32,000 nucleotides of DNA from Candidatus Baldrarchaeum yapensis (GTDB lineage Archaea > Asgardarchaeota > Baldrarchaeia > Baldrarchaeales > Baldrarchaeaceae), in the NCBI GenBank assembly GCA_016840465.1, contig JAEOSH010000003.1, positions 30,001 to 62,000 of the forward strand, given 5' to 3'. The notes below the pieces were generated by a model. It worked only from the letters and a program-made list of their open reading frames with translations. It made no database searches and was not told the origin of the DNA. The position numbers and the translations under genes were made by a program. This document shows, in pieces, positions 1,876-3,969 of this stretch (its first letter is position 1; each line of letters begins with the position of its first letter).

Positions 1876-3033
1876 TTGAATAGGGTTTACATAATAGGCG
1901 TCGGAATGACAAGAGTCGGAAGACATTATGATAAAACGCTAAAGGTCTTAATATCCGATGCGGCTCTTGAAGCACTGAAGGACGCGGGCTTCCCAAAAAT
2001 AGATGCGATTTATTTCTCAAACGCGTACGCGGGAATCGTGGATCATCAGGAAAACATAGCACCTCTCATCGCGGACAGCCTGGGTTGTCACGGGATTCCT
2101 GCGGTGAGAATAGAATGCTCATGTAGTAGTGGAGGAGTTGCAGTTCATGAGGGCTTTAAGGCCATAGCATCCGGAATACACGACGTAGTTCTGGTCATCG
2201 GTGCAGAAAAACTTTCAGATCTCGATCAATGTAGCACGACTAGTACTCTGACATCGAGTGAAGATGTAAGCTACGAAAGCTTCCAAGGTCTCACGATACC
2301 CGGAGCATATGCACTAATGACCCGCCAATACATGCAAACATTCCAAGTATCGGAGGAAGATCTTGCAATATGGCCCGTGCTCATGCATGAACACGCGTAC
2401 CATAATCCCTATGCACAAATAAGGCGTAGAATTACCGTTAGAGACGTAATCGAGAGCAATCCGGTTGCAGACCCGATAAAATTATTAGATTGCTTCTCGG
2501 CCGGTGATGGCGCCGCCGCTATAGTAATGGCAAGTGAAAAAATAGCCAAGGGGGTACGCGACAGGGCAGTTGAAGTAATAGGGATAGGAGCCGCAACTTC
2601 TGCTCTACATATGCATGAGAGGCCGGATCTCACGCGCCTTCAAGGAACCGTGGATGCAGCAAGGCAGGCGTACACGATGGCAAAGTTGACACCTAAGGAC
2701 ATCCAAGTTATAGAGCTACATGATGCATTCACCATCACTGGTATAATCTCCCTCGAAGATCTGGGGATCGTCGGGAAAGGGGAGGGTGTGAAGTTTGTTG
2801 CCGAGGGTATGACATCGAAGGACGGAAAAGTGCCGACAAATTTGAGCGGTGGGCTCAAGGCGCGCGGTCACCCGGTCGGTGCAACTGGGATTTATCAAAC
2901 CGCAGAGGTCGCTCTACAACTCAGGGGAGAATTTCCGGGATTACAAGCACAAAATGACCCAGAGGTGGGTCTCGTACATAATGTTAGCGGAACTGGTGCT
3001 CTCACAACAGTCACCATTTTAAGGAAACAGTAG
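1876..3033 (+). CDS. Archaeal thiolase (acetyl-CoA C-acetyltransferase family)
   Basis: ECSCSSGG (catalytic Cys region), ELHDAFT, SGGLKARGHPVGATG. Confidence 0.9.
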   Translation: MNRVYIIGVGMTRVGRHYDKTLKVLISDAALEALKDAGFPKIDAIYFSNAYAGIVDHQENIAPLIADSLGCHGIPAVRIECSCSSGGVAVHEGFKAIASGIHDVVLVIGAEKLSDLDQCSTTSTLTSSEDVSYESFQGLTIPGAYALMTRQYMQTFQVSEEDLAIWPVLMHEHAYHNPYAQIRRRITVRDVIESNPVADPIKLLDCFSAGDGAAAIVMASEKIAKGVRDRAVEVIGIGAATSALHMHERPDLTRLQGTVDAARQAYTMAKLTPKDIQVIELHDAFTITGIISLEDLGIVGKGEGVKFVAEGMTSKDGKVPTNLSGGLKARGHPVGATGIYQTAEVALQLRGEFPGLQAQNDPEVGLVHNVSGTGALTTVTILRKQ

Positions 3034-3081
3034 AATCACCATACTGATACGAATCACCAACAACACAGCGGAAGTGGTAGG

Positions 3082-3969
3082 TTGTCCGAGGAGAAGTTCT
3101 TACTCTATCTTAGGAAATGGATTGAGCATAACGTCGAACATAACAGAAAACACCTGGAGGAACTCAGAAAACTTCTGCAAAGAGTGAGAGAACATAACCT
3201 CAGAGAAGTGGAAGCGGAGTTGAGCGCAAGTGAGATGTTCATGGAAAAAGTTATTAAAAGCTTGGAAGAGGCGCTAAAGAGGCTAACAAGAGAACGGAGT
3301 GAAGTCGTCACCGCACATGAAGAACAAATGCTCGATCTGGAAGTTGAGATCGATATTCTTGAAATAAACAGAAGACTCGCAGATGAGAATAGACGAATAT
3401 TTGACGAACATGGTATAAAGGTTATAGATGTGAGAGGTGCCATTGGTAGTGGGAAAACATCACTAATAGAGGCAATTATTGATAAGTTGAAGGGGAAATG
3501 TCGAATAGGCGTGATAGCGGGTGATGTGACAACTACAATAGATGCCGATAGAATAAGGCGTCACGGCGTGGACAGTATATGTGTAAATACGGGAAAGGAA
3601 TGCCATTTGGATGCTCTACTGATAAGAAAGGCAATATCTAAAATGAATCTGCCAAATTACGATGTGATATTCATAGAAAACGTTGGAAATCTGATATGTC
3701 CGGCCGATTACCCCCTAGGGGCTCACCTGCACGTTGTTGTGGTCAGCGTGACCGAAGGATCAGATATGATCCTCAAGCACCCTCTGATATTCAAAGATGC
3801 AGATGTGATAGTGATTAATAAGACGGATCTCGCGGAAGAAATGAATGTGGATGTAAATAAACTCGTAAAGGACGCAAGAAGAGCAAACCCCAAGGCGAAA
3901 ATAGTAACTACAAGTGTAAAGACTGGAAGAGGAATAGAGGAATTGATAAAGGCACTTGGCTTGTCTTAA
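3082..3969 (+). CDS. hypB: Hydrogenase nickel-incorporation GTPase HypB with extra N-terminal helical domain
   Basis: GAIGSGKT (G1), GKECHLDA (metal site), ENVGNLICPA, NKTD (G4). About 75 extra residues precede the usual archaeal HypB start. Confidence 0.9.
   Translation: MSEEKFLLYLRKWIEHNVEHNRKHLEELRKLLQRVREHNLREVEAELSASEMFMEKVIKSLEEALKRLTRERSEVVTAHEEQMLDLEVEIDILEINRRLADENRRIFDEHGIKVIDVRGAIGSGKTSLIEAIIDKLKGKCRIGVIAGDVTTTIDADRIRRHGVDSICVNTGKECHLDALLIRKAISKMNLPNYDVIFIENVGNLICPADYPLGAHLHVVVVSVTEGSDMILKHPLIFKDADVIVINKTDLAEEMNVDVNKLVKDARRANPKAKIVTTSVKTGRGIEELIKALGLS

Follow-up and report, generated by a model that had tools for sequence, protein, structure and literature searches.

A HypB GTPase of Candidatus Baldrarchaeum yapensis with an N-terminal DUF8180 hairpin that looks like the nickel-binding core of CooJ

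The nickel-insertion GTPase HypB of the Asgard archaeon Candidatus Baldrarchaeum yapensis begins with an extra stretch of sequence ahead of its GTPase domain, and the question raised by this locus is what that stretch is and what it could contribute to the delivery of nickel. N-terminal additions to HypB are familiar from bacteria; E. coli HypB carries a high-affinity CxxCGC nickel site at its N-terminus, and the HypB proteins of Bradyrhizobium and Rhizobium have His-rich N-terminal stretches. To our knowledge, archaeal HypB lacks the bacterial CxxCGC site and is otherwise without any N-terminal nickel site. The gene lies in a 32,000-nucleotide stretch of contig JAEOSH010000003.1 (positions 30,001 to 62,000), referred to here as the window. 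An initial annotation of the window, made from the letters alone, described the extra stretch as a helical hairpin with three aligned His residues and proposed a built-in module for metal storage or hand-off. Our analysis of the protein, its relatives and their gene neighborhoods indicates that this HypB has probably gained a DUF8180 hairpin by in-frame fusion at its N-terminus, the hairpin being homologous to stand-alone, CooJ-like proteins encoded in CODH/ACS gene clusters. The coordinates of the features are collected in Table 1.

Table 1. Features of the fusion gene (positions in the window) and locations of DUF8180–TrmO_N fusions in other Asgard genomes
Feature	Position	Strand	Basis or remark
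Whole fusion gene	3082-3969	+	TTG start, 295 aa plus stop; DUF8180/CooJ-like hairpin, linker and HypB GTPase
DUF8180 (PF26551)/CooJ-like helical hairpin, residues 1-68	3082..3285	+	PF26551 annotation, family profile, AF2
Putative metal-site stripe on helix 1, residues 13-27	3118..3162	+	W13, H16, H20, N21, H24, E26, E27
Flexible linker, residues 69-91	3286..3354	+	pLDDT and alignment to same-order HypB N-termini
HypB G3E GTPase domain, residues 92-295	3355..3966	+	TIGR00073, 2HF8, invariant columns
Purine-rich, SD-like stretch ggaagtggtagg, directly 5' of the TTG	3070..3081	+	Read from the sequence; candidate SD
DUF8180–TrmO_N fusions, Asgard	L056:3004-3765, L058:3004-3783	+	
DUF8180–TrmO_N fusions, Asgard	G040:C11, G031:C11, G198:C70, G208:C22, G240:C110, G263:C19, G283:C75		

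For the GTPase part of the protein, the TIGR00073 HypB equivalog model matched residues 86–292 (E = 5.5e-82; 274.4 bits, the cut-off being 121.2), and residues 86–290 could be aligned to HypB of M. jannaschii (2HF8; E = 3.2e-67). The P-loop (GxxGxGKT) runs from G119 to T126 and the NKxD motif is present as NKTD at 246–249; among these positions, the glycines of the P-loop, K125, T126, N246 and K247 do not vary across 16 Asgard HypBs. C174/H175 and C206, the Cys-His...Cys metal site of the G-domain dimer interface, fall on the ECH and NLICP motifs in the alignment to 2HF8. As judged from sequence, the gene encodes a HypB of the canonical GTPase type over approximately residues 86–292, sharing the P-loop, ECH, NLICP and NKxD motifs with the archaeal GTPase-type HypBs of M. 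jannaschii (2HF8/2HF9) and A. fulgidus (2WSM). Those two proteins begin ~10 residues ahead of helix 1 of the G domain and are without an N-terminal domain, whereas the fusion protein has one.

The extent of this domain was taken from the HypBs of related genomes, which are ~215–250 aa long (~34–35 genomes with a match, of 40) and whose alignments begin at residues 47–92 of the fusion protein. HypBs of the same order carry a tail that aligns from approximately residue 66, covering residues 66–82 of the fusion protein, so the true addition is ~68 residues (1–68); the extra stretch described by the initial annotation is therefore there, although the ~75 residues given for it are too many. The linker corresponds by homology to the tail with which related HypBs natively begin, and the ancestral start position no longer holds a start codon. 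AlphaFold2, run with the family alignment, predicted a helix (residues 3–37), a turn (38–40) and a second helix (41–73 or beyond) with a pLDDT of 91.6. In the full-length AlphaFold2 model, for which the alignment consisted of HypB rows only, the hairpin reached a pLDDT of 90–95 and residues 79–90 stayed below 50 (disordered), followed by a normal HypB fold. A HypB with an N-terminal helical hairpin is thus what the TIGR00073 match from residue 86 and the predicted hairpin together give, as had been described from the letters, and the three His residues placed at i, i+4 and i+8 of one helix are H16, H20 and H24 of helix 1. General searches with the isolated N-terminus returned little: residues 1–82 gave sub-threshold coiled-coil noise only against local Pfam and NCBIfam collections (the Pfam copy was without PF26551), and phmmer with the 82-residue N-terminus found 0 matches among 1.84 billion representatives.

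Relatives of the hairpin came from a six-frame search of related genomes with the whole protein, which found small stand-alone ORFs matching residues 10–76. A profile of these ORFs recovered 21 small proteins (36–101 aa) from an index of 5.8 billion proteins; all of them carry PF26551, and the names of several refer to Freyarchaeum and Jordarchaeaceae. PF26551 is also precomputed on the representative of the cluster to which the fusion protein belongs, and profiles built from family members matched the fusion N-terminus with E values of 9.3e-21 and 4.6e-21. In the ESM Atlas, PF26551 is DUF8180, the nearest clusters are 100% DUF8180, and clusters occur in Chloroflexota and Methanobacteriota. 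These profile and domain matches place the extension in Pfam DUF8180 (PF26551), a family of which a literature search found no mention under either name. Its stand-alone proteins are 66–135 aa long and matches were present in 133 of 400 Asgard genomes, so the free-standing WIEHNxxH proteins that the initial annotation had mentioned could be located.

The hairpin of the fusion protein is 19–44% identical to other DUF8180 members. Across 30 diverse members, L10, H20, N21, H24, A50, L61 and A64 (fusion protein numbering) are invariant, and the retention of every one of these residues at such low identity argues for purifying selection. The H16 column contains His or Tyr in the 30 members and the following column contains Trp in nearly all of them, giving the family a signature on helix 1 of H/Y-W-x-x-H-N-x-x-H; the fusion protein has Asn17 in the Trp column and its own Trp at residue 13, one turn earlier. 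Conservation of the His residues among homologues, on which the metal proposal had leaned, is therefore borne out. A 12-nt tandem duplication (EHNV/EHNR) had been considered as the source of the third His and was rejected, as the gapless family alignment puts H16/H20/H24 on the three His columns of the family. Many members, among them ones from Frey/Jordarchaeia, Lachnospiraceae and Acetoanaerobium, have His-rich tails, which occur at either end. The fusion protein has no such tail, which makes hand-off of metal more plausible than its storage.

The genes around stand-alone DUF8180 members were then compared. In the large Asgard family f9, the DUF8180 gene is present in 123 of 135 genomes, and 11 of 18 loci have cdhA upstream of it in the same orientation, with gaps of 55–172 bp at nine of those; the encoded cdhA-type CODH has Prismane and 4Fe-4S insert domains and a length of 783–784 aa. 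Two loci (L080:5985-8642 and L081:5749-8377, both on the minus strand) show a full-length cdhA followed directly by a DUF8180 gene of 69–73 aa. No cdhB, cdhC, cdhD or cdhE was found within ~6 kb of the f9 cdhA at the two loci inspected in full. A gene for a Gtr1/RagA-Arf-like GTPase converges on the f9 DUF8180 gene in 15 of the 18 loci. In a bathyarchaeon, the DUF8180 gene abuts cdhE/D/C; across Bathyarchaeia, 44 of 301 genomes contained the domain, in every case within an open frame of 41–144 aa, and no long fused frame was found in any of the 301. The acetogen Acetoanaerobium noterae has the gene order acsB-gcvH-RACo-cooT-DUF3842-DUF8180, in which the product of the last gene is 115 aa long, opens with an extended His-rich head and contains the motif AHWVDHNNSH. 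The replicon concerned (L085; NZ_CP154629.1) is entered in PLSDB as a plasmid with four annotated features; at 2.63 Mb and carrying the acs cluster, it looks chromosome-sized. In Frey/Jordarchaeia, the His-tailed form of the gene is situated 2–3 kb from hypA and hypE. With cdhA, cdhC/D/E, acsB together with cooT, and hypA/hypE as neighbors, the stand-alone relatives do lie near nickel genes, as the initial annotation had it.

The family was also compared with the CODH chaperone CooJ, whose nickel-site motif is quoted as HWXXHXXXH in a preprint (bioRxiv 10.64898/2026.03.10.710785). The His-rich region of CooJ may be at either terminus (bioRxiv 10.64898/2026.03.10.710785), and the protein is hard to recognize by sequence (bioRxiv 10.64898/2026.03.10.710785; PMC13056359). 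A genomic survey of 2026, which lists 68 candidates, reports CooJ from no CODH operons other than those of clades E and F (PMC13056359), and a cooJ–hypB neighborhood is on record in Citrobacter amalonaticus Y19 (PMC6006190). The DUF8180 pattern H/Y-W-x-x-H-N-x-x-H matches the published CooJ motif; the fusion protein itself has the H-x3-H-x3-H triad and lacks the aromatic W/F after the first His. Superposition of the hairpin model (residues 3–68) on truncated R. rubrum CooJ containing the high-affinity nickel site (6hk5_E, 5–68) gave an rmsd of 1.0 Å over 64/64 residues at 19% identity, the best fit to any whole chain, yet its Z of 9.5 is not above that of unrelated hairpins, the highest of which reached 10.9. 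With an offset of two residues, H16/H20/H24 fall on positions 18/22/26 of 6hk5_E, which we take to be the nickel ligands of CooJ. Foldseek with the hairpin model gave no match at E ≤ 0.001, and the two DUF8180 family profiles (A4 and A5) gave no match to R. rubrum CooJ (6hk5) at E ≤ 10 when searched against PDB sequences; what they did return were designed coiled coils and a weak ferritin-like hairpin, NE0167 (3k6c, E = 0.096). Since there is no profile match to CooJ in the PDB, the link is built jointly from the motif, the fold, the arrangement of tails and the gene context. R. rubrum CooJ (6HK5) is a small antiparallel helical hairpin, as DUF8180 is predicted to be, and has a ladder of His residues on helix 1, H-(W)-x2-H-x3-H, with the same spacing. 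Both have variable His-rich tails at either end (CooJ forms with an N-terminal His tail occur in Shewanella fodinae and Clostridium pasteurianum BC1) and both are encoded beside CODH/ACS and cooT genes. Unlike CooJ, the hairpin described here is archaeal and joined covalently to HypB; it is without a His-rich tail, and Asn replaces the aromatic residue of the motif; its relatives adjoin archaeal-type cdhA, whereas the surveyed CooJ proteins belong to clade E/F CODH operons (PMC13056359). Taken as a whole, the extension looks like the nickel-binding core of CooJ.

A hairpin of this kind could instead act as a coiled coil for dimerization or docking only, its His and Asn residues making inter-helix hydrogen bonds or contacts to a partner and binding no metal. 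The generic antiparallel fold does superpose equally well on many proteins without metal, and both fusion partners of the family, HypB and the TrmO-like barrels described below, are dimeric enzymes. We nevertheless regard a metal-free hairpin as improbable, given that invariant residues of polar, metal-ligand type stand at the exact spacing of the CooJ nickel site, that many members carry long His-rich tails, and that their genes cluster with those for nickel enzymes and CooT.

In addition to HypB, the hairpin was found fused to TrmO_N, a TsaA-like barrel, in proteins of 253–265 aa from at least nine Asgard genomes. As in the HypB fusion, the hairpin is N-terminal in these proteins (G152, G289, G040, G031, G198 and others) and is followed by a low-complexity linker, whereas the partner is a TrmO/TsaA-like barrel and not a nickel GTPase. 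Genes for a ferredoxin (4Fe-4S), a DsrE-like protein and a second, Zn-ribbon TrmO-like protein lie nearby at the five loci that were examined. In some TrmO fusions (L054:2419-3138 and L057:2419-3138, both on the minus strand), the first ATG/GTG/TTG codon lies inside the hairpin motif (MHNNQH...) and the open frame extends ~22 codons further upstream, as would be expected if translation began at an unusual codon or if the hairpin were truncated. In Anaerolineae, the DUF8180 gene is found among genes for MinD-like/ferredoxin ATPases, TrmO-like, NifX-like and radical-SAM proteins; one of these loci (L074) has a separate TrmO_N gene ~1.4 kb upstream of DUF8180, between two MinD-like ATPase genes. 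In a Chloroflexi MAG, the DUF8180 gene is followed by one for a 230-aa membrane protein (L073:4441-5133, plus strand) with only a weak Pfam match, to DsbD_2; its H-x4-D-H stretch (RHALDADH) recalls the NiCoT permeases for nickel and cobalt.

The TrmO_N fusions and the MinD-like and NifX-like neighbors mean that the role of DUF8180 may be broader than nickel. They also lend some credit to a hairpin that binds another metal (Zn, Co or Fe) or serves a pathway other than hydrogenase and CODH maturation, such as one in which the TrmO-like, MinD-like/ferredoxin and NifX-like genes also take part, as do the weak ferritin-like matches to Pfam Ferritin (E = 0.0087) and 3k6c. Those matches are below significance and without the ExxH pattern, however, and the fusion partner in C. 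B. yapensis is a dedicated nickel GTPase, with CODH/ACS genes and CooT the commonest neighbors of the family; we give this explanation a low probability. A built-in nickel site on HypB is the reading we prefer.

The fusion gene sits between genes for a thiolase and an NAD synthase, outside any CODH operon with cooC/cooT; NUDIX, PTPS, DUF123 and EF-Tu-like GTPase genes are also in the neighborhood. No hyp or hydrogenase gene was found within 5 kb, in agreement with the earlier remark that neither hypA nor a hydrogenase gene is adjacent. Its TTG codon is the first possible start past the in-frame TAG (3031–3033) that closes the thiolase gene, leaving an intergenic gap of 48 nt, and with a gap this short co-transcription of the two genes is likely. 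A TTG start in a frame that also holds ATG codons at residues 52, 54 and 83 raises the prospect of a mis-called start, with HypB beginning at Met83 (or Met52/54) and the upstream frame being the untranslated remnant of a separate DUF8180 gene. Several observations make this very improbable. No stop codon separates the hairpin from HypB, the family-invariant residues are all intact, and HypB-homologous residues (70–82) precede Met83, the ancestral start position having no start codon. Translation from the TTG would yield an N-terminus (MSEEK...) resembling those of other members, and the SD-like stretch precedes this codon; the 295-aa product is present in both NCBI and JGI records, and G+C content is unbroken across the junction.

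The cluster containing the fusion protein consists of four near-identical 295-aa sequences with one A45T difference, located on ~9 contigs of 58–159 kb from five sources (NCBI, ENA, MGnify, Logan and JGI); independent gene callers thus chose the same start. That the source genome is a 100-contig MAG (96% complete) would allow for an assembly or binning chimera, but the recurrence of the 295-aa protein and its A45T variant on these contigs, and a junction inside uninterrupted coding sequence with no repeat or compositional break, reduce this explanation to a negligible chance.

Outside this cluster, the fusion was not encountered again. Among the 400 Asgard genomes, DUF8180 in a HypB-length frame was found only in the C. 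B. yapensis genome, all other fusions being to TrmO_N. A word-index search with residues 1–85 returned the protein's own cluster only, as did a profile search among longer proteins, which is insensitive and missed the TrmO fusions too. The HypB fusion therefore appears to be confined to one species-level lineage among the 400 Asgard genomes, the 301 Bathyarchaeia genomes and the 5.8-billion-protein index, and as a single species-level cluster it offers little evolutionary replication.

The nickel inventory of the host genome comprises three [NiFe]-hydrogenase large subunits, HypA, HypD, a cdhABCDE operon and a CooT homologue. The HypD match (G000:C67:5011-6072, minus strand; locus L067) contains one in-frame TGA, for which faulty sequencing, a frameshift in the gene or recoding of the codon may account. 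A family-profile search found no second DUF8180 copy in the host genome, and none was found in four genomes of the same order. As the only DUF8180 copy in a genome with CODH/ACS and CooT, the fusion may serve CODH/ACS too, and the absence of a stand-alone gene fits the suggestion of the initial annotation that the module replaces a partner chaperone.

Within HypB, the hairpin invites comparison with the N-terminal sites of the E. coli, Bradyrhizobium and Rhizobium proteins, which likewise place an extra nickel element (here a putative one) on a flexible tether before the G domain. The bacterial sites are a short Cys motif or a disordered run of His, whereas the hairpin is a domain with a fold and an evolutionary course of its own, which also occurs as a stand-alone protein; the distinction drawn earlier between the hairpin and CxxCGC or His-rich N-termini is therefore upheld. 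HypBs of two other Asgard genomes, G034 (L008:1405-2148, plus strand) and G014 (L013:1498-2256, minus strand), carry His-rich N-terminal stretches with runs of H, D and G. These occupy the position of the hairpin and resemble those of the bacterial His-rich HypBs, which points to the HypB N-terminus as a recurrent site of nickel-binding add-ons.

The hairpin is most likely a built-in, dimerizing and putatively high-affinity nickel site that feeds the G domain of HypB. We infer a mechanism of four steps, namely dimerization of the hairpin, binding of nickel, hand-over, and service to hydrogenase and possibly to CODH as well. An antiparallel four-helix bundle like that of R. rubrum CooJ would form from two hairpins and hold the HypB dimer together. 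At the bundle interface, the ladder of His16/His20/His24 would build nickel sites, probably together with Glu26 or Glu27, and the hairpin would thus take a role that falls to the CxxCGC site in E. coli HypB and to His-rich stretches in other HypBs. Nickel would pass by way of the flexible linker of ~20 residues to the Cys174/His175/Cys206 site of the GTP-bound G-domain dimer and, after GTP hydrolysis, to HypA and on to the large subunits of the [NiFe]-hydrogenases.

What is new here is the HypB–DUF8180 fusion itself. It ties two nickel-maturation systems together and provides a "Rosetta stone" hint that the CooJ-like hairpin and HypB act together, which bears on the delivery of nickel to archaeal HypB and on the role of CooJ in CODH maturation. 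It also suggests a function for the unannotated DUF8180 and offers one small protein in which nickel capture, dimerization and GTP-gated release could be dissected. If the homology to CooJ holds, the cdhA-adjacent genes of Asgard archaea and the genes of Bathyarchaeia would extend the range of CooJ beyond bacterial clade E/F operons. A more speculative proposal, which we think unlikely, is that CooJ-like hairpins are general nickel-donor modules on maturation NTPases, that the fusion records a direct CooJ–HypB partnership, and that in this organism one chaperone supplies both the [NiFe]-hydrogenases and the archaeal-type CODH/ACS, replacing the cdhA-adjacent stand-alone gene of other Asgard archaea. 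If true, the fusion would be natural evidence of cross-talk between hydrogenase and CODH maturation, and of CooJ-type helpers for clade A CODHs.
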